37,637 bases of DNA from Alphaproteobacteria bacterium (GTDB lineage Bacteria; Pseudomonadota; Alphaproteobacteria; Rs-D84). The translations under genes were made by a program, and so were the position numbers. The stretch covers positions 1 to 37,637 of the forward strand of contig WRJH01000003.1 of NCBI GenBank assembly GCA_009782315.1, given 5' to 3'. The notes under the pieces were generated by a model. It saw only the letters and a program-made list of their open reading frames with translations, searched no databases and had not been told where the DNA came from. Each line of letters starts with the position of its first letter. The stretch's first letter is position 1. Positions 343-34,488 of the stretch are shown here, piece by piece.

Positions 343-882
343 TTATTTACGTCTGCGAATCCAATGAAAAACATATAAAGCAACGCCTATGCAAATAAAA
401 ATATCGGCGAAATTAAATGCCGGCCAATGATACCCCGCGTAATGAAAGTCCAAAAAGTCTATCACGGCGCCGAATCGTATGCGGTCTACCAGATTTCCAA
501 CGGCGCCGCCGATGATAAGGGCAAGCGATATGCGTTCCAACCGGCCGGGCGCGCGCAAAAGGACATGTCCGAAAAACCCGATGATTGCGGCGGTGATTAC
601 GACGATTGCAACCGGCGCCGCTTCGCCCAATGCACGGAACAAAGAAAACGACGTTCCTGGATTCCAAGTGAAAACAATATTGAAAAAATTGGTCACGCGC
701 GCCATCAGATAGGGATATGGAACCAGATTGAACGCCCGCCCGAACGCCGGCACGGAACCGGTCAAGAGATACAAAATATATCCCTTTGCAATCTGGTCGA
801 CAAGGACCAACACAAGGCATAAGGCACAAGGCATAAGGCATATGCGTTTTGTATTTGCCATAATTTTTTTCAACGACTTCAT
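343..882 (-). CDS. lspA: Lipoprotein signal peptidase II
   Basis: DQIAK, NPGTSFS, GGAVGNLVDR, VIDFLD, WPAFNFAD motifs. Confidence 0.97.
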   Translation of the reverse strand: MKSLKKIMANTKRICLMPCALCLVLVLVDQIAKGYILYLLTGSVPAFGRAFNLVPYPYLMARVTNFFNIVFTWNPGTSFSLFRALGEAAPVAIVVITAAIIGFFGHVLLRAPGRLERISLALIIGGAVGNLVDRIRFGAVIDFLDFHYAGYHWPAFNFADIFICIGVALYVFHWIRRRK

Positions 883-948
883 ACCTTGTCCTTTATGTGC
901 GACATTTCGACAATTTTTTATGCCTTATGCCCTATGCCTTATGCCTTA
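811..948. repeat. Inverted pair of heptamer arrays AAGGCAT / ATGCCTT
   Basis: Arms 811-842 (in lspA N-terminus) and 918-948 (contains tig stop). Confidence 0.92.
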
Positions 949-2207
949 AAAATTTCGTCCGGCTTTACCGTTTTTTCTTTTATCTTTGCCTGCGCGATCA
1001 TGGCGTCCAACGCCTTTTGTTCGAAAAGCATTCCGCGCATCATGGAAACCGCGTTCGGATTTTTGTTATAGAATTCGAAAACCTGCTGCGGGTTCGGATA
1101 TCCCGCCGCCTCTTTCCAGATTGTTTTCTGCAAATCTTCGTTTGTGACTTTGACATCGTTCGCGCTGCCCCATTCCGCCAGAACCAGGCCCAGTTTCACG
1201 CGGCGTTCGGCGTCTTTCATTTCTTTCTTTTCGTCGAATGCGACGCCTTTGCTTGTCGCTTCCCTTTTCGCCATGTCGAATTCCTGGGACACCAAAGTTT
1301 CAGGGATTTCCATTTTCACCTTGTCCGCCAGCATGTCCAAAAGCTCGTTCCGCATTTCGCGGCGCGCGGCGTCTTCGTACTGTTCCGCCAGTATGCGTTT
1401 TATGTGTTCGCGCAAATCGGCGGCGGATTCCCGGCCGACTTCTTTGGCAAAGGCATCGGACAGTTCTGGCAGAATGGATTTCCGAATTTCATGTATTTCG
1501 ATTTCAAACTTTGTCTTTTGCCCGGCCAGATTTGGCGCGTGATAGTCTTTCGGAAATGTGACGTCGATATCAAACTTGTCGCCCGTTTTATGGCCGACGA
1601 TTTTTTCTTCGAATCCGGGTATGAAAGACCCGCTGCCCAGGACCAGGCGATGCTTTTTCGCCTCTCCCCCTTCGAACGGTTCGTTTCCTAAAAACCCTTT
1701 GAAATCAATGACGGTAACGTCGCCGTTTTGGGCCTTGTATCCGGCGTCCTGCATTTCGAACGTCGCGCGGGATTTCCGCAGGTTGTCCAAAGATTTTTCA
1801 ATTTCGCTTTCCGGCACTTCGGCGATTTTTTTCGTAATTGTGAACCCCGACAATTCGATTTTCGGCAGCGCCGGCAGTACGTCGAATTCGATTGAGTACT
1901 CAACATCCTGTCCGCGCGCGAATTTCGTTATATCGGCCTTTGGCGCGCCGGCCAGGCGCAGATTCTTTTCCTTTGCATAGGCATCCATATCCGCGTTCAT
2001 CAGCTTGTCGACGGCGTCGGCATGCGCGGCGTCGCCGTATTTCTGTTGCAGAATATTCATCGGAATTTTGCCCGGACGAAATCCCGGTATTTTCGCCTTT
2101 TCGCCGTATTTGGCCAGTATTTCACAGGCAGATTTCTGTATTTCATCGGCGGTCAGCAAACCCGCGATATGATAATGCAAATCTTTGATTTTTTCTTTCT
2201 TGAACAT
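939..2207 (-). CDS. tig: Trigger factor
   Basis: IPGFRPGKIP ribosome-binding motif; FKBP domain (IDFKG, LGSGSFIPGFEE, VTFPKDYHA). Confidence 0.98.
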   Translation of the reverse strand: MFKKEKIKDLHYHIAGLLTADEIQKSACEILAKYGEKAKIPGFRPGKIPMNILQQKYGDAAHADAVDKLMNADMDAYAKEKNLRLAGAPKADITKFARGQDVEYSIEFDVLPALPKIELSGFTITKKIAEVPESEIEKSLDNLRKSRATFEMQDAGYKAQNGDVTVIDFKGFLGNEPFEGGEAKKHRLVLGSGSFIPGFEEKIVGHKTGDKFDIDVTFPKDYHAPNLAGQKTKFEIEIHEIRKSILPELSDAFAKEVGRESAADLREHIKRILAEQYEDAARREMRNELLDMLADKVKMEIPETLVSQEFDMAKREATSKGVAFDEKKEMKDAERRVKLGLVLAEWGSANDVKVTNEDLQKTIWKEAAGYPNPQQVFEFYNKNPNAVSMMRGMLFEQKALDAMIAQAKIKEKTVKPDEIFKA

Positions 2208-2310
2208 ATAAACGCCCCTTTATTTCAGCCCGCCCATTATAGTGTCAAATTGCCGGATTGCAACTTTTTTATACTTTACACAAGGGGCCCTTTTTCGGTA
2301 CATTATGGAT

Positions 2311-3390
2311 ATGAGAAAACTGCTTGCTCTATGCTCTATGCTCTATGCTCTTGCGCCGCTGGCGGCGCACGCGTCCGAATACCGCGCGGCGATTGTCGCG
2401 GACATGGATACCGGCGCGATATTGTTCCGCGACCGCGACGAAGAATTGAACTATCCGGCCAGCCTTACCAAAATAATGACGCTTTATCTGACGTTCGACG
2501 CGCTGGAAAGCGGGCGCCTGCACCTTTCCGACCAACTGATAGTATCCGCGGCCGCGGCAAATGCGCCGCCTGTGAAACTGGGCCTGGCGGCGGGTTCGAA
2601 AATTTCCGTCGACGACGCGATAAAGGCGGTCGCGGTGCACAGCGCCAACGACGTCGCGCGCGTATTGGCCGAAAATCTGCGCGGCGGGCGCGAGGCTACC
2701 TTTGCATCAATGATGACGGACGTGGCGAACCAAATCGGTCTTTCCCAGACTAATTTTGAAAACGCGTCGGGACTTCCCGACGACGACCATCTGTCGTCCG
2801 CGCGGGATATCGCGCTGCTGGCCATCGCGATTCACCAGCATTTTCCGGGGTATTGGAAATATTTCGGAATACGGAATTGGACATACGGCGGCCGGACTTA
2901 TACGAACGGGAATAAATTGCTGGGCAACTATGCCGGCGCGAATGGCATGAAGACCGGATTTACGAACAGCGCGCGCTATTGCTTGGTCGCAACGGCGGCA
3001 CGCGACGGCAAGAATATTGTGACGGTTGTTTTGGGCGCGCCTAACCGGGATGTCCGTCTGAACGCCTCGCGGAAATTGCTGGACCGCGCTTTCGGAACGG
3101 AAAGCCGGGAATTGAAAATCGAAGACCCGGACGAACAAACCGCTGTGCAAAAACCGAAACCTGTTTCCAGCGGCGGCGGCAAATCGGGGGTACAATTCGG
3201 CGCATTCGGCAGTCGGAACGCCGCAACCGAACAGGCAAAAAAAGTCCAAAAATACACCGGCATTGTACCAAAAATAGAACAGACTGGGGGCATGTTCCGC
3301 GTCCGGGCTTACGGACTATCGGCGACCGCGGCGGACGGGGCGTGCAAAAAATTCCGCGACCAGAAACTGGATTGTTTTATAATCAAATGA
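2311..3390 (+). CDS. D-alanyl-D-alanine carboxypeptidase (peptidase S11) with C-terminal SPOR-like domain
   Basis: PASLTKIMT (SxxK), SAND (SxN), KTG; VQFGAF SPOR-like tail; start placed at MRKLL (2305 also possible). Confidence 0.92.
   Translation: MRKLLALCSMLYALAPLAAHASEYRAAIVADMDTGAILFRDRDEELNYPASLTKIMTLYLTFDALESGRLHLSDQLIVSAAAANAPPVKLGLAAGSKISVDDAIKAVAVHSANDVARVLAENLRGGREATFASMMTDVANQIGLSQTNFENASGLPDDDHLSSARDIALLAIAIHQHFPGYWKYFGIRNWTYGGRTYTNGNKLLGNYAGANGMKTGFTNSARYCLVATAARDGKNIVTVVLGAPNRDVRLNASRKLLDRAFGTESRELKIEDPDEQTAVQKPKPVSSGGGKSGVQFGAFGSRNAATEQAKKVQKYTGIVPKIEQTGGMFRVRAYGLSATAADGACKKFRDQKLDCFIIK
2325..2351. repeat. Heptamer array (TGCTCTA)n within signal peptide
   Basis: About 4 units encoding ALCSMLYAL. 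Confidence 0.9.
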
Positions 3391-3983
3391 ATTCGAAAAT
3401 AGAAAAATTAATCAAACAATTCGCAAAGCTGCCGCGCGTCGGCGGCCGCGCGGGTCAGCGGATTGTCCTGGGGCTTTTACAGGATAAAACCGGAAAATCG
3501 GCCGCCCTTGCGGCCGCATTGATTGATGCGGCGGAAAGCATCAAACCATGCGCGACCTGCGGCTGTTTGACCGAAAACAATCCTTGCGAATTCTGCCTTG
3601 ATGCGGGCCGCGAAAATGGCCAGCTGTGCCTGGTTCGGGATTTGGGCGACGTCTGGACATTGGAAAAATCGGGGGTGTTCCGCGGCCGGTACCATATTGT
3701 CGGCGGACTTTTGTCGGCGGCGACGGGAACGACGCCCGCCGATTTGAATATCGAAAATATCCCTTTGCGAATTGCGGCGGAAAACATTTCCGAAATTATT
3801 TTCGCATTGCCGAATACGGTCGAAGGCAAAACGACCCAGCATTTCATAATTAACAACTTGCAATTATCAATTAACAATTTGCAATTCACTGAATTGGCGT
3901 CGGGCGTGCCGCTGGGCGGCGATTTGGATTATATAGACGACGGCACATTAAATATAGCTTTCGGAAACAGAAAACAGATATGA
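3387..3983 (+). CDS. recR: Recombination mediator RecR
   Basis: HhH LPRVGGRAGQR, CxxC...CxxC zinc finger, TOPRIM, GVPLGGDLDYID; ATGA overlap with upstream stop. Confidence 0.96.
   Translation: MNSKIEKLIKQFAKLPRVGGRAGQRIVLGLLQDKTGKSAALAAALIDAAESIKPCATCGCLTENNPCEFCLDAGRENGQLCLVRDLGDVWTLEKSGVFRGRYHIVGGLLSAATGTTPADLNIENIPLRIAAENISEIIFALPNTVEGKTTQHFIINNLQLSINNLQFTELASGVPLGGDLDYIDDGTLNIAFGNRKQI
3848..3889. repeat. Degenerate heptamer array (AATTNNC)6 in recR
   Basis: aattaac aacttgc aattatc aattaac aatttgc aattcac; encodes INNLQLSINNLQF. Confidence 0.8.
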
Positions 3984-4861
3984 AAAACCCGTCTTTCGAC
4001 TTTCGACTTTCGACTTTCGACTCACTGGCGGCTCTGCCGCCTGTTTCCGAAATGATGCGCGCCGCGGGACTAGAGCCCAAAAAGCAATTCGGCCAGAATT
4101 TTTTATTCGATTTGAATCTGACCGGAAAGATAGCGCGCGCTGTTCCAAATATCGAAAATTCAACCGTTGTCGAAGTGGGACCGGGACCTGGCGGACTTAC
4201 CCGCGCGCTGCTTTTGGACGGCGCCCGCAAAGTCATCGCCATCGAAAAAGATAAAACAACCGCGCCGATTTTGGAACAAATCGCGGCGGCGGATGGGCGG
4301 TTGGAAATCATATTTGCGGACGCGTTGAAATTCGATTTTGCCCGGCTTGGGAAGATTTCCATCTGTTCCAATCTGCCCTATAACGTCGGCACGGAATTAT
4401 TGATTCGCTGGCTGCACGATATGGAAAATATTTCGTCCATGACATTGATGTTTCAACGCGAAGTTGCGGAACGAATTGTTGCCGCGCCCGGCACGGAACA
4501 TTACGGCCGCCTGTCGGTTTTGACATCGCTTTTAGCGGACGCAAAAATATTATTCGATGTTCCGAATACGGCGTTCGTACCCAGGCCGAAAGTTCAATCG
4601 GCGGTTGTCCAAATCATTCCGAAAAATGTAGGGGCGCGCACCCACCCCGCGAAATCTTTGATTTCGCCGGGACCCGGGGGAAACGCGCCCATAGATAAAA
4701 TCGAAAAACTTACTGCGAAACTTTTCGGCCAGCGCAGAAAGATGATTCGCGGAATCCTGCCCGGCGCCCTCTGGGAACAATTCGGGCTTTCAGGCACGGA
4801 AAGGGCCGAAGAATTAACACCTGAAAAATTTGCCGAAATCGCCGCCGCAAATGTGATATAA
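3980..4861 (+). CDS. rsmA: 16S rRNA adenine dimethyltransferase KsgA/RsmA
   Basis: KKQFGQNFL, VEVGPGPGGLT, NLPYNV, MFQREVAERI, FVPRPKVQS. Confidence 0.97.
   Translation: MKNPSFDFRLSTFDSLAALPPVSEMMRAAGLEPKKQFGQNFLFDLNLTGKIARAVPNIENSTVVEVGPGPGGLTRALLLDGARKVIAIEKDKTTAPILEQIAAADGRLEIIFADALKFDFARLGKISICSNLPYNVGTELLIRWLHDMENISSMTLMFQREVAERIVAAPGTEHYGRLSVLTSLLADAKILFDVPNTAFVPRPKVQSAVVQIIPKNVGARTHPAKSLISPGPGGNAPIDKIEKLTAKLFGQRRKMIRGILPGALWEQFGLSGTERAEELTPEKFAEIAAANVI
3994..4021. repeat. Heptamer array (TTTCGAC)4 in rsmA N-terminus
   Basis: Four perfect units encoding FDFRLSTFD. Confidence 0.95.
4628..4690 (+). repeat. GTAG-type REP-like element in frame in rsmA
   Basis: 63 nt, 60/63 identical to the reverse complement of 13161-13223. 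Confidence 0.92.
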
Positions 4862-4882: not shown

Positions 4883-6586
4883 ATGAATCTATCCATCCTT
4901 GTCATATTGGGCGTGGCTTTCGCGCTGGTCTATTTGCTGCGCGTGGCGCATGTCGGAACTTTAATCGCATTCCTGTTCGCCGGAATCGTCGCGGGGCCTT
5001 ACGGCCTGGGGCTTTGGGAATTAACCGACACCTGGTCGTTTCTGGGAGAAATAGGAATTATATTTTTATGGTTCAGTATGGGCCTGGAACTGAACACGCG
5101 GCGATTGTGGCAAATGCGCGATACGATATTCGGATTCGGCGCGGCCCAGGTTCTGGCGGTTGCGGTAATGTTGTTTCCGCTTTTGTTCGGCATTACGCCG
5201 TGGGGGATTTTGCCCGTTATTATGGTGTGCCTTTTGCTTTCCATGTCGTCCAGTTCAAGTGATTTGGATCTGCTTGCGGAACGGAATGAATTACAGACTA
5301 CATTGGGCCGGCAAAGTTTTTCGATTCTGCTGTTCCAGGACCTTTTGGCCATACCGCTTATCGCGATGGTTCCGATTTTCGCCGGGAAACAGTTTAATCT
5401 GGGCGCCGAAGTTATCGATATAACTGTCATGTCCGTCGGCCTTATTATCGGTGTCGTGATTGTCGGCCGGCTGGTTTTGCAACCGCTGATGCGGCACGTG
5501 TCGCGGTTGAAATCCAAAGAAGCGTCGCTGATTGCGATATTCCTGAATATCATCGGCTGGGTCGTGGTTATGGAATTCGTGGGACTGCCGCCGGCAATCG
5601 GCGCGTTCCTTGGCGGTATGTTGATGAGCGAGACGCTGTACAGACATCAAGTCCAATCCGAAATCGCGCCATACCGGATTTTGTTTTTATCGTTCTTTTT
5701 CATTGCGTTGGGCATGGGGTTGAATCTGCCTATGCTGGCCGCGAACTGGTGGCTGGTTGCGGGCGGCGCAATCCTGTTGGTCGGCGTAAAATTCATCGCG
5801 ATATATGCCGTCGCGCGCCTGCGCCGGGTTCATCGCCGCGAAGCGTTCCTGATTGCGCTGATATTGGCCCAGGGCGGCGAATTCGGTCTGTTGATATTGC
5901 AGATGATGCGGCAAAACGGGATAGAGGCGATACCGTTCCAACATTCCGAAATCCTGATGTCCGTCATAGTGGTGTCGATGATTATGACGCCTATATTGCT
6001 TGCCATATACGACCGGCTGTATGAATCTGGCAAACTGGTATCCGGCGCCCGCGCGCGCAAGGTAAATATCGGCGCGACCGAAAAACCCGAAGTGATTATA
6101 TGCGGATTTGGGCGCGTCGGGCAAACGATTGCGAAAATGATGGAATCCCAGAATATCCCGTATGCGGCCATAGACATGAATGTCGACGCGGTTGTTCGCG
6201 GCCGGAACGAAGGCTTTAACGTATTTTACGGCGACACTGCAAAGGCGGCTGTGCTGTCCGAAATCGGCCTGGCGCCGCGTCGGACTCGCGCGGTTGTGAT
6301 TGCGCTTGATAACGCCAGCATTGCGAAAAGCACGGTCCGCGCGGTAAAACAGGCGACGCCGAACGTCCGCATATTCGCCCGCGCAAGAAATCTGGAAGAA
6401 GCGCTGATATTGCAAAGAGAGGGGGCAAAGCTTGCATTGCCTGAAACGATTGAATCGTCGTTCATGCTTGGCGAACAGGTTTTGGAAACCCTTGGCATAA
6501 AACAGGATAAAATAGACATTCTGTTGTCCCGTCTGCGCGGCGACAATTACGCGACTCTTTCGAAAATCCTGGACCGGAATAAATAA
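4883..6586 (+). CDS. Kef-type CPA2 cation/proton antiporter with TrkA-N domain
   Basis: Multi-TM N-terminus, LLFQD, LAQGGEF, ICGFGRVG Rossmann motif. Confidence 0.93.
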   Translation: MNLSILVILGVAFALVYLLRVAHVGTLIAFLFAGIVAGPYGLGLWELTDTWSFLGEIGIIFLWFSMGLELNTRRLWQMRDTIFGFGAAQVLAVAVMLFPLLFGITPWGILPVIMVCLLLSMSSSSSDLDLLAERNELQTTLGRQSFSILLFQDLLAIPLIAMVPIFAGKQFNLGAEVIDITVMSVGLIIGVVIVGRLVLQPLMRHVSRLKSKEASLIAIFLNIIGWVVVMEFVGLPPAIGAFLGGMLMSETLYRHQVQSEIAPYRILFLSFFFIALGMGLNLPMLAANWWLVAGGAILLVGVKFIAIYAVARLRRVHRREAFLIALILAQGGEFGLLILQMMRQNGIEAIPFQHSEILMSVIVVSMIMTPILLAIYDRLYESGKLVSGARARKVNIGATEKPEVIICGFGRVGQTIAKMMESQNIPYAAIDMNVDAVVRGRNEGFNVFYGDTAKAAVLSEIGLAPRRTRAVVIALDNASIAKSTVRAVKQATPNVRIFARARNLEEALILQREGAKLALPETIESSFMLGEQVLETLGIKQDKIDILLSRLRGDNYATLSKILDRNK

Positions 6587-6725
6587 TTTCTGATTTAGGA
6601 TTTCGGATTTCTGATTTGGAGATTGATTGAAATACATACATTAAAATCAAACGATTTTTATGACTTATATATGAAGTATCGGCGCGCTCCAAATCCTAAA
6701 TCAGAAATCATATATCAGAAATCCT
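6586..6725. repeat. Inverted pair of heptamer arrays ATTTNNG / CNNAAAT
   Basis: Arms 6586-6620 (starts in the antiporter stop codon) and 6688-6725. Confidence 0.88.
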
Positions 6726-6734
6726 ATTTTCCCC

Positions 6735-7664: not shown

Positions 7665-7692
7665 AAAAATCCGCCTTTCGGCGGATTTTTTT
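7663..7692. terminator. Bidirectional intrinsic terminator
   Basis: AAAAAAATCCGCC-TTTC-GGCGGATTTTTTT between convergent genes. Confidence 0.9.
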
Positions 7693-7963
7693 ACTTACGC
7701 AATCCCAATTTTTTAATCAGTGCTTCATAATTGGAAACGCTGTGTCTTTTGATATAGGCAAGCAGTTTTTTGCGGCGGTTGACCATTTTCAAAAGGCCGA
7801 ATTTCGAATGCTGGTCTTTCGGCATTTTTTTCATATGTTCGGTCAGGTTGATGATGCGTTCGGTCAGAACCGCAACCTGTGCCGGGGCGCTGCCGCCGTT
7901 GTCCTTGTCGGACGATTTGTATGCTTTGATAAGCTCTGTTTTTTTTGCTTTTACAATCGACAT
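7691..7963 (-). CDS. rpsO: 30S ribosomal protein S15
   Basis: QVAVLTERIINLTEH, KDQHSKFGLLKMVNRRKKLL, LGLRK; follows truB. Confidence 0.98.
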   Translation of the reverse strand: MSIVKAKKTELIKAYKSSDKDNGGSAPAQVAVLTERIINLTEHMKKMPKDQHSKFGLLKMVNRRKKLLAYIKRHSVSNYEALIKKLGLRK

Positions 7964-7983: not shown

Positions 7984-8018
7984 AGTGACTAGTAATTAGT
8001 GACTAGTGACTAGTTATT
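7984..8018. repeat. Heptamer array (AGTGACT)n containing the truB stop
   Basis: agtgact agtaatt agtgact agtgact agttatt. Confidence 0.85.
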
Positions 8019-9049
8019 ATTCGCTTTGGCCGCAGCTGTCCGTTTATAATTTCGCCGATTCCAATGAACCCGCCGTTATTATAGATACGCCGCAAACCAT
8101 CGCCGTTACTATCGATAAATCCGCCGTTTTTGAACAGTTCCGCGTCTTTATCGCCGATTTCCAAAACCAGAATGTCGTCCAGTCCGAAATCCACCGGTTT
8201 CAGGTATTCCAAAACCGGTTGGTGTTCCGCCTTCGCTTCCGCTCCGGCGCGACAGGCATTATTATACAGATTTTCCAGAAAATCAAGCGCCGCGGCATCT
8301 TTTATTTCAAAATTATGGGTGCGCGTCCGGCGAATGCTGTCGCAAGTGCAGATGAAACCGTTTCCCGTTTTCCGTTTCCCGTTTTCCGCATTATTAATTT
8401 CATCGACGATTTGTTGCGCCAAGGCCCGCACATAAGTCCCGGCGGAACACTGGACCCTGAACTCGGTCGATGTAGGGGCGTGCCGCGCACGCCCGGGCGC
8501 AAGCATTGCGCCCCTACATACTTCCAATTCATATATATTAACCCGTCGCGCGGGCACTTCAAATTCCGCGCCGCGCCGTGCCAATTCGTATGCCCGGCGG
8601 CCACCGATATGCACGGCGCTGTATGCGGGCGGCGTTTGTTCTATTTCGCCAACCAGCACGGACAATGCGGCCGATATCTGCTCACCCGACGGCACACTGT
8701 CGTTTTGTTCCATAACCTTTCCCGTAATATCATCTGTGTCTGTCTTGATTCCCCATTGAACAGAAAATTCATACTCTTTTTGACATCTGTGCTCTCTGCT
8801 CTCTGCTCTATGCTCTAAATACGGTATCATCTTGGTCGCCTCGCCCAGCGCGATTGGCAGAACACCGGACGCCATGGGGTCCAAAGTTCCCAAATGTCCG
8901 AATTTTTTTATCCCGAACATGCGCGCGACGCGGCCGCCGGCCGCGCGACTGGTCATGCCGGACGGTTTATCCAAAATAATCCACCCGCCTTCGTCCGCCT
9001 TCACTTCGTTACGGCGCGACTTCGGCGCGGCAAGCCCGCTTTTGCTCAT
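8003..9049 (-). CDS. truB: tRNA pseudouridine(55) synthase with multiple repeat-derived insertions
   Basis: LDKPSGMTS, GHLGTLDPMASGVL, QTPPAYSA, CSAGTYVR; start placed at ATG 9049. Confidence 0.96.
   Translation of the reverse strand: MSKSGLAAPKSRRNEVKADEGGWIILDKPSGMTSRAAGGRVARMFGIKKFGHLGTLDPMASGVLPIALGEATKMIPYLEHRAESREHRCQKEYEFSVQWGIKTDTDDITGKVMEQNDSVPSGEQISAALSVLVGEIEQTPPAYSAVHIGGRRAYELARRGAEFEVPARRVNIYELEVCRGAMLAPGRARHAPTSTEFRVQCSAGTYVRALAQQIVDEINNAENGKRKTGNGFICTCDSIRRTRTHNFEIKDAAALDFLENLYNNACRAGAEAKAEHQPVLEYLKPVDFGLDDILVLEIGDKDAELFKNGGFIDSNGDGLRRIYNNGGFIGIGEIINGQLRPKRIITSH
8227..8257 (+). repeat. CCSCCTTCRC...GG.GGRCAGG-type palindromic repeat in truB
   Basis: CCGCCTTCGCTTCCGCTCCGGCGCGACAGGC; related to 8985, 21472, 28483. 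Confidence 0.7.
8358..8388. repeat. Heptamer array (CCGTTTY)4 in truB
   Basis: Encodes ENGKRKTGNG. Confidence 0.9.
8472..8517. repeat. GTAG-type REP doublet in truB
   Basis: GTAGGGGCGTGCCGCGCACGCCC + GGGCGCAAGCATTGCGCCCCTAC; encodes CRGAMLAPGRARHAPT. Confidence 0.9.
8786..8817. repeat. Heptamer array (TCTNTGC)n in truB
   Basis: Encodes EHRAESREHR. Confidence 0.9.
8985..9035 (+). repeat. Nested CCGCCTTC-type palindromic repeat in truB N-terminus
   Basis: CCGCCTTCGT[CCGCCTTCACTTCGTTACGGCGCG]ACTTCGGCGCGGCAAG. Confidence 0.7.
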
Positions 9050-9050
9050 A

Positions 9051-26409: not shown

Positions 26410-26428
26410 TTCGTGGTTGGTGGTTCGT
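26404..26428. repeat. TGGTGGT-type array containing the uvrD stop
   Basis: ttgtgat tcgtggt tggtggt tcgt, abutting a REP. Confidence 0.75.
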
Positions 26429-26498
26429 AGGGGCGCATATATGCGCCCTTTAATTATGAACACGTTCATACTATACGGGCGCATATATCCACCCCTAC
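26427..26498. repeat. GTAG-type REP doublet
   Basis: GTAGGGGCGCATATATGCGCCC ... GGGCGCATATATCCACCCCTAC. Confidence 0.9.
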
Positions 26499-26529
26499 AA
26501 AAAACGGATTCTTTCGAATCCGTTTTTTT
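26499..26529. terminator. Bidirectional intrinsic terminator
   Basis: AAAAAACGGATTC-TTTC-GAATCCGTTTTTTT. Confidence 0.9.
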
Positions 26530-28834
26530 ATTGCCGGCATTGCATTGTCGTGCCGCCTTCCTCCGCTTTCCACGAATACCCCGGCGCGCATCTGCAATAT
26601 TGCATTCCTGGAATTGCTCCACCTGTGCCCCCCAACTGTTGATTATTCACAGCATTGCATTCTTCATACGACACACAACTGCCGTTCATTACCATAAATG
26701 AACTGTCGCACTTACACATCGCGTTGACCCAGCCGTTAGACGTACCGTTAGCGCTGATAGCTGTTCCGCCAGTTGCGAATGTCGAATTATCCGGGCACAG
26801 CATGGATTGATAGAATATTTCCGAAATTCCGTTTATGAAAACATTCTGGTCATTTCGGTTTGTTTCCGCCGAAAATACCGCGTATCCGCATGTCAGCGCG
26901 ACATTGCGGCACGCGCCCCGCATAACATTGTACACATGTTCCGCCGACGCGTTGGACGACCATGCGCCGACCTGGCTGACCTGTTGGCTGTAACAGAATG
27001 CTACGTCCTGCATGCACGTTGTCGCAAAATCGGAAATTACGCGGGACTGGGCGGCCTTTATATTAACCATCGCGCGCTGTATGAATGTTTTTACAACCTC
27101 GTTATGAGGATTGAATTTTCCGGACTTGTCATACGTGACGGCACGGCACCGGTCCATAGTCGCACGGCAAAGTCCGCTGGTCGCATCCTGGCTTGTGCCG
27201 ATTTTCTGCAACAGGAAATTGATGATGCATGTGCCGTCGGTCAGTGCGGTTGAAGAGCATTGACCCGGCACGGGCAGCCCCTCTAACGACATGTCCGCCA
27301 TATTGAATCCCGCCGTCATGCCCGTTATATTCGTTATATCCTTGCCCAAAACGACAGTGCCGTTTTCGTCGATATACATTTTCGTCGGGTCTATGCATTT
27401 AACAAAATCGCGGCCGCACACCATGTCGTCGGTCATGCATTTTTCCAGCGCGCCGACGCAACCCTTTGCGTCGTATTGGTTATGGTTCTGCATGACGGCA
27501 AGCCTGGCCTGTTGCAGCATCTGCGTCGCGGCGCGCACATTGGTGCGCAACGTCTGGTTCATCTTTTCCAATCCCTTTTCGTACTGGGTGCAGTCGCGGT
27601 CGATTTCAATTTCGTACCGGGCGGTGATTTGCGACACGTTGACGCCGGACCGCCGGCAAGCGGACAATACGTTTTCACACCGGCCCCTTGCGGCGTTCAA
27701 TAATTGGGTCCCGCGCATATTCGCAAAGGTCCCGCCGCCGGTTCCGAATAGATTACCGATATTGAACATTTCGGCCGGATCGCCCGACAGCGCGAAATCT
27801 ATATTCATATCCAAACCGTATCCGGTCGTGCCGGATGCGGCGACGAACGATTCCGGATTTTTTATCAGCTGTTCGATTTGGTCCAGCATGTTGCGGTTTT
27901 CGGTTGTGTCGCGCGCGCCGGTCAATGCAAGTTCCGCTTCGGTCGCGCTTAATATCGCGCGGATTTCATCGGCGGTAAGGCCGACATAGCGTATACGCTG
28001 GGCGACTTCGTTCAATTCGTTGTTGGCTTCTTTTGTGGCGTTTTCGACGCGGGAATAATTGGACAGCCGGTCGGAACAGCTGCACCGTTTTTGATTCGCG
28101 TCCAGGACGTTGCAGAACTGGTCCATGCATTCCGTGTATTGTTCGTGGCATGCGGCGGTCAAATCGCCCATGGCGGACAGCTTGTCGGTCAGTTCGTTAA
28201 TAGACACGGACGTCACTTGGGTTCCGGCGCGGTCGGTGCGCGTTGCGATGCGGCCGGTGTTGCCGATGTTGGATGTTGTGGGCTGGCCCGTGCCGGCGAC
28301 GTTTCCGCGGCCGCCGACTTCGGCGACGGTGGGCCGCAGAATGATTCCGGCGCGGCGCAAACTGGCCTCTTGATTCACAACGCCTTTGTCGTTTTCATGA
28401 AAAGCCGCGCGTCCCATGGCGCTGCCGGCGCCCTGCGCCTGAACGCCCGCCGCGCGGGATACGGCCGCAGAACGCGCAACAGCCTGCCCCCCGGAACCTT
28501 GGTGAAGGGGGGTGCGCGCAACAACGGGGGCGGAAACCTGGGGTGCGGCGGCCGATTGTTGCGGCACGGCTTGTGATGTTGTTGCTGTGCGTGTTACAAC
28601 GGCATTACGCGATACACCTGGCGCGACCGCCGTTCTCTCCGCTCTATTATCTATGCTCTCTTCTCTATGCTCTATGCTCTGCGGCGCCTGCGCCGCAGCC
28701 TGCGTCACGGTTCTGGAAACCGCCGCGCGACCGTATTGGATTGGTTCATCAGCGTTTGCAATGAAAGCAAGGCACAAAGCCCCGGCTGTTGCCAGGGCCA
28801 CTGTCTTTATGAAAAATCTTCCCTGTGATTTCAT
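26528..28834 (-). CDS. Large exported Cys-rich hypothetical protein (paralog A)
   Basis: Signal peptide, Ala/Arg/Thr-rich N-terminus, CHEQYTECMDQFC...KRCSC, EGF-like Cys tail. Confidence 0.88.
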   Translation of the reverse strand: MKSQGRFFIKTVALATAGALCLAFIANADEPIQYGRAAVSRTVTQAAAQAPQSIEHREESIDNRAERTAVAPGVSRNAVVTRTATTSQAVPQQSAAAPQVSAPVVARTPLHQGSGGQAVARSAAVSRAAGVQAQGAGSAMGRAAFHENDKGVVNQEASLRRAGIILRPTVAEVGGRGNVAGTGQPTTSNIGNTGRIATRTDRAGTQVTSVSINELTDKLSAMGDLTAACHEQYTECMDQFCNVLDANQKRCSCSDRLSNYSRVENATKEANNELNEVAQRIRYVGLTADEIRAILSATEAELALTGARDTTENRNMLDQIEQLIKNPESFVAASGTTGYGLDMNIDFALSGDPAEMFNIGNLFGTGGGTFANMRGTQLLNAARGRCENVLSACRRSGVNVSQITARYEIEIDRDCTQYEKGLEKMNQTLRTNVRAATQMLQQARLAVMQNHNQYDAKGCVGALEKCMTDDMVCGRDFVKCIDPTKMYIDENGTVVLGKDITNITGMTAGFNMADMSLEGLPVPGQCSSTALTDGTCIINFLLQKIGTSQDATSGLCRATMDRCRAVTYDKSGKFNPHNEVVKTFIQRAMVNIKAAQSRVISDFATTCMQDVAFCYSQQVSQVGAWSSNASAEHVYNVMRGACRNVALTCGYAVFSAETNRNDQNVFINGISEIFYQSMLCPDNSTFATGGTAISANGTSNGWVNAMCKCDSSFMVMNGSCVSYEECNAVNNQQLGGTGGAIPGMQYCRCAPGYSWKAEEGGTTMQCRQ
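28483..28512 (-). repeat. CCSCCTTCRC-type palindromic repeat in paralog A
   Basis: Minus strand CCCCCTTCACCAAGGTTCCGGGGGGCAGG; encodes PLHQGSGGQ. Confidence 0.65.
28641..28680. repeat. Heptamer array (GCTCTAT)-like in paralog A
   Basis: Encodes QSIEHREESIDNRA. Confidence 0.85.
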
Positions 28835-28856: not shown

Positions 28857-30992
28857 TTATGGCTGTATGCCTTGCGACCCATCCGGCAACACGCCCCAAT
28901 CGCGGATATTGTCCACATTCATCTGTTGCAGACACCATTCGCGGATTTCCTTTGATTTTTTGCCGGTTCCATAAGTCGGCTGACTTATAGTTCCCGTTAC
29001 GCCCGTGCCGTAAAGGATTTCAGACAGCGTCACAACGTTGCGGCAAGTGTTCAGCTTTGGATCCTGGTTGTTGTCGCAAGTTTCGTTGTCAACCTTGTCT
29101 ATGATTGCCGCCACGGACGTATGCGCCGGACTGCAAATCATATCGCGGTAACAGCTGGGGATATTGGACGTCTGCGTGCAGTGCGCTTTGATTCTCGCGG
29201 TCGTCCAATTTTGCGACTGGTACTGCATCTGTTCGTAACAATCCCATATTTCGGTCAGGCATTGCACGAAATTGTTTTTCGCGGCGGTGGAATTCGCGCG
29301 CTGGGCGTTTGTTTCCGTTGTTTCGAATTCAAGGCGTTTCGCTTGCAGCGCCTGCATTGCGGCAATACGCTGGAACGCCATGTTCTGGGTCATCGTTTTC
29401 AATTCTTCGCCGTAAACGTCGCAGTCGGCGTTCGCGTCCAGCGCATACCGGACCAGAACGCTGCGGCGCGCGTCCGCGATGGGCTTGCGCAGATTTTCAA
29501 ACGGGTCGGAATTCGCATTGTATCCGAAACACACGGCCGTGGCGGCTGTGCTGGAACTGTTGGATTTTATGGCGAATGCGTTGTTCACGTCGGTATTGTT
29601 GTTGCTGATTGTGATTTTGCTGTTCAGGTTTCCGGGCGTGTTGCTTTTACAGTCTTCGTATATTCCGTTGAAACAGGAATCCAGAACGCGTCCGCAAACT
29701 TCGTTGTGCGCGAATTGGAACAAATCATATCCCCATGTTTCTGCCAGATTGTCTTTCACCATCGTATCGCCGAATACCGAACTTTCGCCGGGCCGGCGCA
29801 GCCCCAAATCCACGGTAATATTGTACGCGCTGTTGATATTTTTCAACCAGGCGAACATGTCGTTGTCGCGGGTGATTGTGTCGACCAGCTGCATATTGCT
29901 GTTCGCGGTGTTAAGCAGATTGCTGATGGACGAATCCATGCCGTTCAAACTGTTTATCATACCGCCCGGACACATTGTGTTTTCAAAGTTGCGAATAGTG
30001 CCGGCTGTACAGGTAGCAGTGTCGCTTTGCGCTATAAGCGCAACGGTATTGTTATTGCACCATTCTGTTTTCATATTTTCGTTGTCGCTGAAAACAACTT
30101 CGCGGAACGAAACGCAGTTCAGAATTTTTTCCGCATCGGTCAGCGTGAATGCGGCCGATATGTCGCGCCCGCCGGATGCGACGATAAGCGCCAATTCGCC
30201 CGACGCGCGCAATAAATCCTCGCGCGCCTGGTTCAATGTTTTTTCCGCCGAATTGAATGTCAGAACGCGTCCAGCGCACGCACAGCGGCGCTGTCCCGGA
30301 TTGCGCGCGGTGCAGATTTCATCCATGCAGGTGTAATACGCGTCCATACAGTTCGCGTACGCTTCCGCGGATATCAGACCGGTCTGCGGGTCGATGATGT
30401 TCGCGTGGCTGCCCGTCCACATGCGTTGCGACAAAAGGGAATTGGAATTCACCGATGTGCCCGGAACCCGCGAAGTCGCGGATGCGCCCGCAACCATTCC
30501 GACGCGCGCGCTTTGCGGCATAACTCCGGTTCGCGCCGAAACGGCGCGGCTTTGCGTCGATGCGGCGGCGCGACCTGTGACATTACGCGGTGTAACTGTG
30601 GCGGCGCGTGCCGTTGGCGCGGCGTTGCGCGCGGACTGCGTTGTTGTTGTGGCGCGGCTTTGCTGTGCGGTTGTGCCGGCTGTTGCCGGTGTGGCGATGG
30701 CGGCCGGTGCCGCCGCTGTACGCGCGGTTACCGCGCGGGCGCCCAAACCTTCGCGGCCCTGTGCCTGACCGCGGGCGGCGACGCCGCGCGACCCTGCGCC
30801 TGCGCCGCCTGTGCGGCCGGATTGCTGTGCGGCCGCGCTGCGCGGATTATACGTCTGGCTTCCGGCCGCCGCTTGCTGCGCCGCGACCTGGGCCTGGTAT
30901 ACGCCCGCCTCTCCGTATTGAACCTGTGCGTATGCGCTGAATGCAAAAACCGCCGCGCAAATAGCCGCCATAAAAAAATGCGTGAACTTCAT
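28857..30992 (-). CDS. Large exported Cys-rich hypothetical protein (paralog B)
   Basis: Signal peptide ending AYA, low-complexity N-terminus, CMDAYYTCMDEIC...RRCAC. Confidence 0.88.
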   Translation of the reverse strand: MKFTHFFMAAICAAVFAFSAYAQVQYGEAGVYQAQVAAQQAAAGSQTYNPRSAAAQQSGRTGGAGAGSRGVAARGQAQGREGLGARAVTARTAAAPAAIATPATAGTTAQQSRATTTTQSARNAAPTARAATVTPRNVTGRAAASTQSRAVSARTGVMPQSARVGMVAGASATSRVPGTSVNSNSLLSQRMWTGSHANIIDPQTGLISAEAYANCMDAYYTCMDEICTARNPGQRRCACAGRVLTFNSAEKTLNQAREDLLRASGELALIVASGGRDISAAFTLTDAEKILNCVSFREVVFSDNENMKTEWCNNNTVALIAQSDTATCTAGTIRNFENTMCPGGMINSLNGMDSSISNLLNTANSNMQLVDTITRDNDMFAWLKNINSAYNITVDLGLRRPGESSVFGDTMVKDNLAETWGYDLFQFAHNEVCGRVLDSCFNGIYEDCKSNTPGNLNSKITISNNNTDVNNAFAIKSNSSSTAATAVCFGYNANSDPFENLRKPIADARRSVLVRYALDANADCDVYGEELKTMTQNMAFQRIAAMQALQAKRLEFETTETNAQRANSTAAKNNFVQCLTEIWDCYEQMQYQSQNWTTARIKAHCTQTSNIPSCYRDMICSPAHTSVAAIIDKVDNETCDNNQDPKLNTCRNVVTLSEILYGTGVTGTISQPTYGTGKKSKEIREWCLQQMNVDNIRDWGVLPDGSQGIQP

Positions 30993-31058: not shown

Positions 31059-31192
31059 ATAGGGCATAAGGCACAAGGCATAAGGCATATTTTCCTGTTG
31101 TTAATATTTGGATTTTCGATGATAATTTCACCGTTAACCAAAAGGAAAAAATATGAAAAAACTTATGCCTTATGCCTTATGCCTTGTGCCTT
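31059..31192. repeat. Inverted pair AAGGCAT / CTTATGC
   Basis: Arms 31059-31089 (identical to 26170-26200) and 31162-31192 (mliC signal peptide). Confidence 0.93.
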
Positions 31193-31769: not shown

Positions 31770-31838
31770 CAGTCGGCAGTCTATAGTCTTCAGTCGTCAG
31801 AATTTTATCTTTCGACTTTCGACTTTCGACTTTCGACT
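31770..31838. repeat. Inverted pair of related arrays (YAGTCNN)4 / (TTTCGAC)4 between rplU and rpmA
   Basis: Arms 31770-31800 and 31810-31837; the second overlaps the rplU stop. Confidence 0.85.
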
Positions 31839-32202: not shown

Positions 32203-32282
32203 AGGTAAGAGGTGTGAAGTAAAAGGTATGAAGTATCCATCGTCCACCTACCTCATACTTCTTACCTCATACCTTTTACCTA
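32203..32282. repeat. Inverted pair ARGTANG / CNTACYT
   Basis: Arms 32203-32236 and 32247-32281, five units each; second arm overlaps the PBP1A stop. Confidence 0.88.
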
Positions 32283-34391
32283 AAACACTCCGCCCACTAC
32301 TGTTTCGCCCGATGCGCCATCTTCATTTGGCGCGCCCCGCGGCGGATTGGGCTTTTGCCCCGGTTTGAACGCTTCCAGAATAATGGTTCCTTCGGGGTCC
32401 TGGCTGGCCGCGATGCCTGTTGCGCGGTTCACACGTATGAGTTCCAGGCCGTCCGGTATGGGGAACGGGCGGTTGCTTTCATTTTGAAGCGCGACTTTCA
32501 TAAAATCGCCGAAAACTTTCGCGGCCATGTATGAACCGGCGCCGGGCCCCAAGGGATGGGGATTGTCGTATCCCAAATAAACGCCGGCGACCAGGTCTTT
32601 GGAAAAACCGACGAACCAGACGTCGCGCACTTCGTTTGTGGTTCCGGTCTTGCCCGCGATGGTGCGTCCGGGCACACGCGCCTGGCGCCCTGTTCCCATT
32701 TCGACCGCGCCCTGCAAAATGGATACTATCTGGTACAGGCTTTGCGGGTCGGCAAGCGCCTCGCCCGGCTCTACCCGTTCCGGCGGCAGCATGCCGGGCG
32801 TCCATTCCATGGACATGTCGCCTGCTGATTCCTGGTTTCTGGTTCCTATGATTTTCCCATGCCTGTCCTGGACATAGTCGACCAGTTTCAAATCATGCCT
32901 GTATCCGCCGTTGATGAACGCGGCATACCCCAGCGCAAGTTTGGCCAAAGTCGTCTCGCCCGACCCCAGCGCCAGCGACAAATTCATGTGCCGCATATTG
33001 TTGTCGTACACGCCGAACCGCTGGGCCGTGGCGACGGCGCGGCGCACGCCGATATCGTCGACCAATCGCACGGTCGGCACGTTCCGGCTGGTTTCCAGCG
33101 AAAGGCGGAAAGGAACGTTGCCCAAAAACTTGCGGTCGTAATTTTCCGGCTTCCATAATTTTTCGTCTTCGCGCCATCCGACGATGGGCGCATCCATCAA
33201 AAGGGTTTGCGGCGTATAGTTCCCGGTTTCCAGCGCCGCCAGATAAACAAAAGGCTTTATTGTCGAACCGACCTGTCGCATGGCCTGGGTCGCGCGGTTG
33301 AACGAAGATTCCGCAAAAGAATCGCCGCCCGACATTGCCAAAACGCGCCCGGTGTGCGGATTTACCACGATGATTGCGCCTTGCAGTCGCTCTTCGCGGC
33401 CCTGGCTGTATGTGTCGATTGCGGATTTCAATGCCGCGGCCGCCGCGCGCTGCAATTCCGGAACGATTGTCGTCTTTACGTACAGTCCGTCGTTGTACAG
33501 CATTTCGCGCCCGATTTTATTCAACAGTTCGCGGCGGACGTCTTCGGCGAAATATTGAAAATCATCCTCCATCTGGGCCATAAATCCGCGGTTGATGTTC
33601 AATGGGTCCGACATAGCTTCCGTCATCTGCTGTTTTGTAATGAACCCTTCATCCATCATGCGGCGCAATACGTAATTGCGGCGTTCGACCGCGCGGTCGC
33701 GGTTGTTCGGCGCCTTGGGCAGCGATGCCAGGAAAGCCATCTGGGACAAAGACAGCTCTGCTACGGGCTTGTTGAAATACATCAAGGACGCGCTGCCCAC
33801 GCCGTACGCGCGCGCGCCCAAAAATATCTGGTTCAGATACAGGGTCATTATATGCTGTTTGGAAAAAGCGCGTTCCAGGCGCAGCGCCAGAATAGCCTCT
33901 TTTGCCTTGCGCGCGATGGTGCGGTCGGATGATAAAAAGAAATTCTTCGCGACCTGTTGGGTTACCGTCGACGCACCTGAAAACCGCGTCGGCCCGCCCA
34001 GTATTTTGATAAGGTTGTTTGTCGCGGCGCGCGCGATTCCGAAAACGTCGATTCCGGCGTGGCGCCAGAAATTCTTGTCTTCGGCGGCGACGAACGCGTT
34101 GACCAGTTGCGGCGGCATGTCTTCGAATTCTATGAACACGCGGCGTTCTTCGGCATATTCGATAAGCAAAGAGCCGTCGGCGGCATAAAGGCGCGTCGCG
34201 ACCGGCGGCGAATACGCGGCCAGTTTTTTATAGTCCGGCAAATCGCGGCCGTATTTCACGACCAGCGCGGTTGCCAGAATGACCAGAACGACGGCGGCCC
34301 AGAACGCGCCGCGCAGCAGCAGAATCGTTGATTTTTTAAGGAAAGATAAAAACGCGCCGAATTTTTTCACCCGAAAAGTATACACCGGCAA
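32280..34391 (-). CDS. mrcA: Class A penicillin-binding protein 1A
   Basis: AAEDKNFWRHAGID, GASTVTQQVAKNF, GSTIKPF, SRN, GKTGTTN; start uncertain. Confidence 0.93.
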   Translation of the reverse strand: MPVYTFRVKKFGAFLSFLKKSTILLLRGAFWAAVVLVILATALVVKYGRDLPDYKKLAAYSPPVATRLYAADGSLLIEYAEERRVFIEFEDMPPQLVNAFVAAEDKNFWRHAGIDVFGIARAATNNLIKILGGPTRFSGASTVTQQVAKNFFLSSDRTIARKAKEAILALRLERAFSKQHIMTLYLNQIFLGARAYGVGSASLMYFNKPVAELSLSQMAFLASLPKAPNNRDRAVERRNYVLRRMMDEGFITKQQMTEAMSDPLNINRGFMAQMEDDFQYFAEDVRRELLNKIGREMLYNDGLYVKTTIVPELQRAAAAALKSAIDTYSQGREERLQGAIIVVNPHTGRVLAMSGGDSFAESSFNRATQAMRQVGSTIKPFVYLAALETGNYTPQTLLMDAPIVGWREDEKLWKPENYDRKFLGNVPFRLSLETSRNVPTVRLVDDIGVRRAVATAQRFGVYDNNMRHMNLSLALGSGETTLAKLALGYAAFINGGYRHDLKLVDYVQDRHGKIIGTRNQESAGDMSMEWTPGMLPPERVEPGEALADPQSLYQIVSILQGAVEMGTGRQARVPGRTIAGKTGTTNEVRDVWFVGFSKDLVAGVYLGYDNPHPLGPGAGSYMAAKVFGDFMKVALQNESNRPFPIPDGLELIRVNRATGIAASQDPEGTIILEAFKPGQKPNPPRGAPNEDGASGETVVGGVF

Positions 34392-34409
34392 AAATCAAAT
34401 AGCAATAAA

Positions 34410-34488
34410 AAGTGACAAGTGACAAGTAATAAGTGATACCGCCGTTCCAGGATTACAAGTATCACTTATCACTTGTCACTTTTCACTT
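34410..34488. repeat. Inverted pair AAGTGAY / NTCACTT
   Basis: Arms 34410-34437 and 34461-34488, four units each, 23-nt spacer, between divergent genes. Confidence 0.9.

Follow-up and report, generated by a model that had tools for sequence, protein, structure and literature searches.

In cyanobacteria, short tandemly repeated repetitive (STRR) sequences form several families of tandem heptanucleotides with few copies each, located mostly between genes. The small dispersed repeats (SDR) of Nostoc punctiforme (Elhai and co-workers, 2008) are shorter than 30 nt and reportedly appear at new sites without an obvious transposase. Repeats of the heptamer TAACTGA occur in marine Beggiatoaceae and in some Cyanobacteria and Bacteroidetes, with 169 direct sets versus one indirect set (PMC4679880). 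The intervening sequence (IVS) in the 23S rRNA of Coxiella is a 428-nt element with a 28-bp terminal inverted-repeat stem that is cut by RNase III, an S23p open reading frame (ORF), and variable heptameric repeats; ORF-bearing IVSs encoding S23p or four-helix-bundle proteins are found in Coxiella, Leptospira, Brucella, and Xanthomonas (PMC4990558). The origin and spread of the heptamer arrays (STRR, TAACTGA) and of the ORF-bearing 23S IVSs are unexplained, and the papers that we searched treat them as separate subjects. Here we analyze a 37,637-nt stretch of DNA from an alphaproteobacterium of the order Rs-D84 (assembly GCA_009782315.1, contig WRJH01000003.1, positions 1 to 37,637 of the forward strand; hereafter the window), which is densely populated by short heptamer arrays. 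Both subjects meet in its small genome, where a gene cassette bounded by such arrays moves between contexts and marks array-rich genomes. We conclude that the arrays are not free-standing products of slippage; on balance, they appear to be the arms of a family of IVS-type palindromic elements that overran a reduced genome.

The window is contig C3 of the source genome (G000), whose assembly comprises 814,626 bases in 60 contigs and is 88% complete. The initial annotation had listed about 34 arrays and 12 unit types in the window, and this list proved accurate. Using Tandem Repeats Finder (TRF) at a minimum score of 30, we recovered 31 of the 34 starts within a few bases, 29 of them with period 7 (the rows for 16387 and 32205 were given as periods 13 and 14), and all 12 unit types are present. 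The other three entries, at 17360, 26404, and 31770, are degenerate period-7 tracts whose lag-7 self-identity of 0.46-0.68 exceeds that at lags 5, 6, 8, and 9. One further TRF row of period 7 (17826-17850, CGCGCGC) was excluded from the system as conserved G+C-rich coding sequence.

The preference for period 7 extends to the whole genome. Non-redundant TRF loci number 365 at period 7, versus 9, 48, and 37 at periods 5, 6, and 8, and the array density is about one per 2.2 kb. A custom run detector found 126 period-7 runs and at most nine runs for any period that is not a multiple of 7, and Markov-1 shuffles gave none at any period, in agreement with the excess of period 7 expected by the initial annotation. 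Its suggestion of a non-geometric length distribution also holds. The period-7 loci have a mode of 31 nt and a median of 4.29 copies, while median copy numbers at periods 6, 8, 9, 10, and 12 range from 2.0 to 2.9, and the 31-nt mode is common to paired arrays, solo intergenic arrays, and solo arrays in ORF interiors. This fixed period and size is combined with a free unit sequence, as had been proposed: there are 112 canonical units, dominated by AAGGCAT (50 loci), AGAGCAT (48), AAATCAG (22), AAAGTCG (15), and AATAGGT (14).

As the initial annotation stated, the window contains no four-helix-bundle gene, yet three such genes are present elsewhere in the source genome, each of them bracketed by arrays. 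These PF05635 genes are located on contigs C34, C35, and C39 (their scores, from the highest down, being 99.8, 86.3, and 84.7 bits) and were confirmed by TIGR02436 and by a match to PDB entry 2rld (E = 5e-32), which has five chains. All three are tightly bracketed by an inverted pair of arrays of about 30 nt, each cassette having its own unit, and no other inverted pair of correct handedness in this genome encloses 350-390 nt. The full cassette thus spans about 430 nt and consists of an arm of about 30 nt (4-5 heptamers), a PF05635/TIGR02436 gene of 120 aa, and a reverse-complement arm. The gene at C39:2050-2358 has an in-frame TAG and may be a pseudogene. A tblastn search of the source genome with 31 cassette proteins revealed no further remnants, the three known genes being the only matches below E = 0.01.

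The link between heptamer arrays and four-helix-bundle (23S-IVS/bAvd-like) genes, which the initial annotation had mentioned, holds in the source genome and in its relatives, where complementary heptamer arms flank both sides of 20 out of 31 four-helix-bundle loci and several others have arms of two units. Among 40 relatives, 15 of the 24 that belong to the family of the source organism (hereafter f1) have the gene, as opposed to none of the 16 from elsewhere in the order. Outside the order, 12 genomes out of 200 sampled Alphaproteobacteria contain it. Among 17 loci from this sample, the flanks are dominated by lag 7 in 12 and by lag 8 in two, and three loci are inside 23S rRNA genes, all three with heptamer arms. 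Two loci of another alphaproteobacterial family (L204 and L205 in G176) have flanking period-8 tracts with lag-8 scores of 9/14 and 6/12, a possible octamer variant. In the f1 family, none of 20 loci tested matched the rRNA model. The anatomy of the cassettes matches that of the Coxiella IVS and none of those tested lies in rRNA, so the cassettes described here are IVS-type elements outside rRNA. In the source genome the 23S gene is cut at the contig end, and therefore helices 25 and 45, the IVS sites, lie outside its assembled part.

Comparison of cassettes between genomes indicates that a mobile element is involved, since they occur in different contexts in different genomes. The protein tree contains four supported sister groups that span genomes and have a common unit (AACAACT, ACTAGAT, AATCAGT, and AAGGCGT). 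Homology stops at the arms, with different flanking genes, in five of the six unit-sharing cassette pairs compared. In the sister genome G004, which is 72% identical to the window over 23.8 kb, the site orthologous to the C35 cassette retains both arms with the gene reduced to its first ~57 nt and last ~45 nt, and the site of the C39 cassette is empty. The proposal of a mobile or repeat-writing system in the initial annotation is therefore sustained for the mobile element; the writer acting in trans is another matter, which we address below.

Most arrays in the source genome stand apart from any cassette, and neighboring arrays are strongly biased toward inverted orientation. The 323 arrays of at least 20 nt form 104 adjacent pairs within 250 nt, of which 72 are inverted, 2 direct, and 30 other, so that 144 of the 323 arrays belong to inverted pairs; the window itself has nine pairs and about 13 solo arrays. 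Each multi-copy family has a single handedness (21/21 pairs for AAGGCAT, 12/12 for AGAGCAT, and 5/5 for AAATCAG). The unit cycle of the 5' arm contains stop codons, which cover all frames, in 58 of 72 pairs, versus 14 of 72 for the 3' arm, and ATG occurs in the 3' arm of 36 pairs. RNA folding of six window pairs gave stems of 27-31 bp in every case, with z-scores of -6.0 to -9.1. The spacers of pairs without an ORF are diverse and often include native promoters and gene starts.

The arrays are enriched at gene boundaries. We compared the positions of 297 arrays of at least 24 nt with the expectation from random placement. Intergenic arrays number 128 (21.0 expected), the last 45 nt of ORFs hold 19 (18.4 expected), and ORF interiors hold 77 (224.8 expected). 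The first 90 nt of ORFs hold 73 arrays (32.8 expected), although these were crudely called by greedy ORF picking, which assigns 94% of the genome to ORFs, and some arrays at 5' ends may thus really sit in leaders.

Turnover of window arrays was assessed against the sister genome. Six arrays, starting at 20933, 24186, 24292, 26248, 28633, and 31059, are conserved in G004; those at 7984 and 11773 are missing; the sites 811 and 918, 3993, 16323 and 16387, and 31809 carry arrays of other units; and the arrays at 8786, 18687, and 31162 face non-repeat sequence of similar length. The search for empty sites that had been suggested earlier thus succeeded at 7984, at 11773, and for the C39 cassette. 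The target duplications sought with them were not seen by eye at 7984 and 11773, where the alignments are poor. Seven pairs could be evaluated. Three had both arms exchanged in concert for a new complementary unit, two retained both arms, and two had one arm only; none of the seven turned non-complementary in G004. As a rule, the arrays are not derivable from local flanking sequence in orthologs. One exception is the array at 8358, which resembles a 21-nt local expansion (three units) of sequence present in G004.

High array density also coincides with the gene across genomes. We counted arrays of at least 24 nt per kb in contigs sampled irrespective of the gene. A four-helix-bundle gene is present in every one of the ten genomes that reach 0.067 arrays per kb or more, and none of the 20 gene-free genomes exceeds 0.05. 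The latter value was found in G032, a genome with 53% G+C and no such gene. Three-unit patterns of AACAACT occur in seven of 41 genomes (52 in G030, 26 in the source genome, 19 in G004, 6 in G011, and at most one in the others), and AAGGCGT patterns occur in five of 41. The genomes known to hold the cognate cassette are all included (2/2 for AACAACT and 3/3 for AAGGCGT), and both patterns are also present in the source genome, where no cognate cassette was found.

Arrays inside genes encode recurring peptides with a periodicity of seven residues, such as KSEIRNQ, VESRKSK, SIEHRAE, and MPYALCL, and the ATGCCTT orientation provides the hydrophobic core of many signal peptides. The array in valyl-tRNA synthetase (ValRS), a perfect repeat of 33 nt, is located in the linker joining the catalytic and anticodon-binding domains. 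The length of this linker is equal in five of seven other orthologs, and the remaining two are shorter by one and four residues. Other in-gene arrays are likewise in variable loops, where protein alignments reveal length differences of -2 to +7 residues relative to orthologs, and the length is exact in ValRS only. We therefore rejected exact length-neutral replacement as a general rule. Indel turnover in tolerated loops could explain most in-gene arrays, and the ValRS and signal-peptide cases keep the idea of conversion in place alive. Arrays can evidently colonize essential genes without destroying them, as in valS, mutS, the truB-like gene, and the stretches that code for signal peptides, among them the signal peptide of LspA. 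This works through tolerated 7-residue periodic peptides, in a genome that is otherwise strongly reduced.

Under the reading that we favor with moderate confidence, in which the arrays are arms of IVS-type elements, the full element would be the cassette with its four-helix-bundle gene, and each cassette lineage would have its own heptamer. In this genus the arms would have multiplied beyond the three cassettes, as ORF-less inverted pairs around short intergenic regions and as solo arrays. Transcripts that cross a pair are predicted to fold into stems of 27-31 bp, which RNase III may cut as it cuts the IVS stems of rRNA. Slippage combined with selection, or templating between arms, might keep the arrays homogeneous and at about 31 nt, and arrays would last only where they are tolerated, namely in intergenic DNA, signal-peptide cores, and disordered linkers. 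The four-helix-bundle protein, a concrete and testable candidate for the trans factor, may itself take part in array propagation. The IVS-type arms may explain where such heptamer repeats come from.

Several observations weigh against this scheme. Only three cassettes stand beside ~365 arrays in the source genome; the assembly has no cassette to match the frequent units AGAGCAT (48 loci), AAATCAG (22), and AAAGTCG (15); and the unit of the G002 cassette is not among the commonest units of that genome. Clear arms on both sides are lacking in 11 of the 31 cassettes of relatives. The co-occurrence of gene and arrays was counted over genomes that are related and hence not independent, the density difference by gene presence within f1 is not significant (rank test, p = 0.10), and samples of 9-45 kb from five gene-bearing genomes are free of arrays. 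Nor does a role in hairpins account for the solo arrays, which make up about half of the total. We rejected the idea that the spacers of ORF-less pairs are remnants of four-helix-bundle genes, given that blastn-short matched 12 of 55 spacers to cassette interiors versus 15 for shuffled spacers; descent of these pairs by internal deletion is thus shown at one site only. The array at 8358 looks like a plain local expansion. RNase III was not found in the source assembly. Its domain was detected in 39 of 41 relatives, the four other genomes of the genus among them, and the absence probably reflects an assembly gap. No enzyme that moves or copies DNA could be linked to the arrays, with no RVT_1 or Y1_Tnp match in the source genome.

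The same searches argue against the dedicated trans-acting writer proposed by the initial annotation, since none was identified: the source genome, in its 88% complete assembly, has no RVT_1, Y1_Tnp, or PDDEXK_3 (GxxExxY) match. Y1 transposases (PF01797) were searched in a run whose control was positive in 6 of 14 genomes. A reverse transcriptase (RT) was rejected as the array writer, with none found in G000, G001, G002, and G004. RTs of 350-407 aa occur in nine other f1 genomes, on other contigs or far from the listed four-helix-bundle genes. Immediately upstream of one of them is an ORF weakly similar to bAvd (E = 0.007, which does not reach the curated cut-off), and on account of this neighbor the RTs of relatives probably represent separate diversity-generating retroelements (DGR). 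The RTs recorded in relatives include L208 (G006, contig C25, 2535-4578), L209, L210, and L211. All nine RT-bearing f1 genomes also carry PF05635 cassettes, and none of the nine cassette-free f1 genomes has an RT.

A more specific proposal assigns the role of trans factor to the four-helix-bundle protein. As a pentamer, it would bind one heptamer per protomer, leading to 4-5 units, with each variant of the protein specific for its own heptamer, and would propagate or re-template arrays at hairpin-prone sites together with host replication or repair, without any transposase or RT. We consider this unlikely, though worth stating: if it were true, IVSs, STRRs, and other heptamer arrays would form one widespread and unrecognized class of protein-guided repeats able to overwrite coding sequence.

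Three other explanations compete with the derivation from IVS-type arms, and none of the four excludes the others. Simple slippage would suffice if polymerases favored a 7-nt realignment, selection trimmed the size and place of the products, and cassettes merely carried arrays or landed in them. Heptanucleotides are indeed reported to be the commonest class of long simple repeats in most prokaryote genomes, for which slippage was proposed (Mrazek 2007 via PMC4679880), the number of heptameric repeats varies among Coxiella strains (PMC4990558), and the three-unit expansion at 8358 in the truB-like gene is of the expected kind. However, slippage cannot put AAGGCAT at 50 separate loci, cannot yield 72 inverted versus two direct neighbor pairs with fixed handedness, and cannot turn the two partners of a pair into arrays of another, again complementary unit. 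It also fails to account for lengths that peak at 31 nt rather than declining from the shortest class, and for close relatives of similar G+C that have no four-helix-bundle gene and are almost free of arrays, such as G032. We regard slippage as an improbable explanation. Alternatively, an activity in trans might overwrite about 31 nt in place, copying either the partner arm or some other array by template switching or conversion and leaving the length unchanged. In its favor are the ValRS linker, whose length is kept in five of seven other orthologs while the source genome has a perfect array; the arrays in the MliC-like signal peptide, the MutS linker, and the truB-like loop, which face unrelated ortholog sequence of near-equal length; the arrays of unrelated unit at the same sites in sister genomes; the 31-nt mode of solo arrays in ORF interiors; and the two pairs of which G004 has only the upstream arm, the downstream arm of the source genome corresponding to coding sequence of near-equal length. 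Yet length is kept only roughly (-2 to +7 residues), all of these sites are variable loops in which indel turnover is expected, the arm at 31162 is out of register with the partner that it should have copied, and the searches gave no candidate enzyme. A genome that is 94% ORF by a crude call offers few tolerated sites, and repeated insertion into these would look alike; we find such in-place writing about as improbable as slippage.

The position of the arrays raises one more alternative, in which the pairs are not selfish and are retained by host selection as regulatory modules that insulate neighboring genes at the level of translation end, mRNA processing or stability, or transcription termination. 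This would agree with the sixfold intergenic and twofold 5'-end enrichment, with stop codons in all frames of 58/72 5' arms versus 14/72 3' arms and ATG in 36/72 3' arms, with the conservation of several pairs between the source genome and G004, and with the proposal that heptamers upstream of start codons regulate translation in Beggiatoaceae (PMC4679880). However, the compact gene order is shared by relatives most of which manage without arrays, and same-site arrays differ wholly or are missing between sister species. Half of the arrays are solo and 77 are inside ORFs, and a tolerance filter acting on selfish insertions predicts the same handedness. A regulatory origin seems very unlikely, and we retain the IVS-type arms as the preferred source of the arrays.

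The pairs of the window illustrate these features. The (AAGGCAT)4 array at 811-842, identified by TRF and pair analysis as the 5' arm of a pair, encodes on the minus strand residues ~14-24 of LspA (lspA, 343-882), and its 3' arm, (TTATGCC)4.4 at 918-948, extends over the stop codon of the minus-strand gene for trigger factor (939-2207). The corresponding sites in G004 have an AGAGCAT array and an ATGCTCT-type array, i.e. both arms changed together. The (ATTTCKG)4.6 arm at 6586-6617 directly follows the stop codon of the Na+/H+ exchanger gene and is paired with an AAATCAG-type 3' arm at 6691-6727. Upstream of gyrA, a GTGGCTG-type 5' arm at 16323-16353 and a CCACSAA-type 3' arm at 16387-16411 have both been exchanged, relative to the AACTAAC-type pair of G004. 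The AAGGCAT/AGGGCAT 5' arm at 20933-20962 encodes on the minus strand the signal peptide of a DUF2147 protein (YALCLMPYAL), and its 3' arm, (CTATGCC)5.4 at 21066-21103, is missing from G004, where other sequence including a G+C-rich palindrome stands. The divergent intergenic region before uvrD is flanked by (GTGGCTG)5.4 at 24186-24223 and by (CACCAGC)3 at 24292-24312, the latter covering codons 3-9 of the uvrD ORF. At the other end of this gene, (CATAAGG)4.7 at 26169-26201 lies in the 3' tail of the ORF and is partly kept in G004, and it is paired with (TGCCYTA)4 at 26248-26275. The (ATAAGGC)4.4 arm at 31059-31089 is located upstream of the gene for the MliC-like lipoprotein, whose signal-peptide hydrophobic core (MKKLMPYALCLVPLFLGAC) is encoded by the 3' arm, (CTTATGC)4.4 at 31162-31192; the G004 protein has an ordinary signal peptide at this site, one residue shorter. 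An AGGTANG-type 5' arm at 32205-32235 and (TACCTCT)4.7 at 32249-32281, at the stop codon of the PBP1-type gene, form another pair, and (AAGTGAC)3.9 at 34410-34436 is separated by a 23-nt spacer from (TATCACT)4.1 at 34460-34489. The AAGGCAT arrays at 811-842, 26169-26201, and 31059-31089 have a common variant third unit, CACAAGG, which in the uvrD frame eliminates a would-be in-frame TAA.

Solo arrays between genes or at gene ends include (AGTGACT)4.4 at 7984-8014, between ORF 7691-7963 and the truB-like gene, whose absence from G004 appears as an indel; (GTGGCTG)3.6 at 11773-11797, upstream of mutS; and (AGTTGTT)4 at 13586-13613, at the gyrA stop codon. Those inside genes are (TGCTCTA)3.9 at 2325-2351, in the signal peptide of the D-Ala-D-Ala carboxypeptidase (LALCSMLYAL), where the orthologs in G002, G003, and G004 have ATGCCTT-type remnants (LCLMPYAL); (CCGTTTY)4.4 at 8358-8388, within the truB-like gene (ENGKRKTGNG) and longer by 21 nt (seven residues) than in G004, which holds about one unit; (TCTCTGC)4.4 at 8786-8816, in a variable loop of the same gene (EHRAESREHR); (TCTATGC)4.4 at 9163-9193, in the C-terminal linker of MutS (ESREHREQSID); the perfect (CGACTTT)4.7 at 18687-18719, within valS, which encodes VESRKSKVESR; and the perfect (CGTTGTC)4.4 at 22737-22767, within ORF 22174-23433 (TDNGQRTTDND). 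The (CTTTCGA)4.3 array at 3993-4022 belongs either to the leader of ksgA/rsmA or to the first part of this ORF (3980-4861), and G004 has there an AACTCTN array with lag-7 identity of 0.86. A degenerate (AATTNNC)5.6 array at 3848-3886, near the 3' end of ORF 3342-3983, corresponds in G004 to a period-7 tract of another unit and equal length. The TGCTCTA-type array at 28633-28680 lies near the 5' end of ORF 26528-28834 (QSIEHREESIDNRA). A perfect (CTTTCGA)4.3 array at 31809-31838 is partly complementary to the degenerate (CAGTCNN)5 tract at 31770-31804, and its site in G004 has a GTGGCTG/CAGCCAC inverted pair. Two more degenerate tracts were missed by TRF, an ATGCCTT-type tract at 17360-17394 (lag-7 identity 0.46) and a GTGGTTS-type tract at 26404-26438 (0.54).

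About 17 elements of the source genome have a common, partly palindromic core of ~23 nt (ATTGWTGAAA...TTTCWACAAT type) between arms of differing units, and a search with this core matched 25 places in all. Its bearers are found on contigs C1, C2, C8, C17, C23, C42, and others, and in the window at ~843-917; the spacers at C23:5662-5767 and C42:5974-6078 are identical and their flanks differ. At first sight this sequence is a candidate core of a miniature inverted-repeat transposable element (MITE). Some of it is palindromic, however, and some falls on the start codons and N-regions of genes for secreted proteins and lipoproteins.

The genes of the window are ordinary core genes, encoding trigger factor, D-Ala-D-Ala carboxypeptidase, KsgA, an Na+/H+ exchanger, a TruB-like protein, MutS, GyrA, ValRS, UvrD, a PBP1-type protein, and LspA. 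Two ORFs on the minus strand have no Pfam match, 26528-28834 (768 aa), whose N-terminus is of low complexity and rich in Ala, Pro, and Gln, and 28857-30992 (711 aa). On the same strand, a 5S rRNA gene (37078-37192, rRNA model match) and the 3' end of a 23S rRNA gene (37306-37637, model positions 2583-2925, cut by the contig end) complete the window. The relatives of its GyrA (74-84% identity) are titled Alphaproteobacteria or 'Candidatus Enterousia' metagenome-assembled genomes (MAGs). Gut Alphaproteobacteria with reduced genomes are described from the order Rs-D84 (PMC12306168), and genome sizes in the relatives are 0.5-1.1 Mb. Three termite-gut metagenome runs, all in the form of contigs, contain the window (word shares of 0.99, 0.67, and 0.15), and no RNA run was listed among its holders. 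Within positions 8001-28000, arrays mark or include the ends of Logan contigs from the source run (for example 18690/18716, 21068/21094, 22738, and 26171/26199), and some contig joints in the run data link distant arrays and look like artefacts of the repeat graph. No 7-nt indels at arrays, such as phase-variable simple-sequence loci could show, were listed in the contigs of the three runs, which drop rare variants and break at arrays. For annotation, array-coded N-termini and linkers in these MAGs should be taken as real sequence, and assemblies become fragmented at arrays.

Compared with known systems, the description of these arrays as an undescribed system in the initial annotation was too strong. 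The literature already includes a heptamer-repeat stem around the S23p ORF of the Coxiella IVS (PMC4990558) and an excess of heptanucleotide repeats (Mrazek 2007 via PMC4679880). Our literature search, which covered main texts, returned no paper that links four-helix-bundle genes to genome-wide heptamer arrays. No link between STRRs and such genes was found in the literature searched, and cyanobacterial genomes were not searched for it. The likeness to DGRs (an RT next to an Avd-like gene, with template and variable repeats, TR/VR) is limited, as RVT_1 has no match in G000, G001, G002, and G004. The 72 inverted pairs recall the terminal inverted repeats of MITEs, but the copies have no common interior and none derived from an autonomous element, the one orthologous deletion derivative being that in G004. 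In the REPIN-RAYT system, a short intergenic palindromic doublet is putatively served by a gene flanked by the same repeats, with a family-specific combination of repeat and gene (PMC3116915), much as in our cassettes. In contrast, no RAYT/Y1 gene is present here, the flanked gene encodes a small helical protein without known catalytic activity, and the repeats are tandem heptamers rather than a fixed palindrome of 20-25 nt.

Further resemblances are to the described heptamer repeats and to the IVSs. Like the TAACTGA repeats, whose 2-6 copies usually stand directly before a start codon, whose distribution among lineages is patchy, and for which no mechanism is known (PMC4679880), the arrays described here are built of heptamers. 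TAACTGA, however, is one dominant unit with almost no inverted repeats, whereas 112 units occur here and inverted pairs dominate among neighbors. The tandem heptanucleotides of the source genome resemble STRRs in forming several sequence families dispersed genome-wide, and differ in their units, in the phylum of the host, and in its genome of less than 1 Mb. With the 23S IVSs they have in common an element of ~430 nt with terminal inverted repeats, a stem of ~28 bp around a PF05635 ORF, and heptamers in the stem region. Unlike an IVS, none of the 20 f1 cassettes is in an rRNA gene (helix 25 or 45 of 23S being the IVS site), and arms that lack the ORF have spread to hundreds of sites, some of them protein-coding. 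What extends beyond the known IVSs, STRR-like repeats, and heptanucleotide repeats is the density of the arrays, their entry into the coding sequence of core genes, and the explicit connection of cassettes with arrays.

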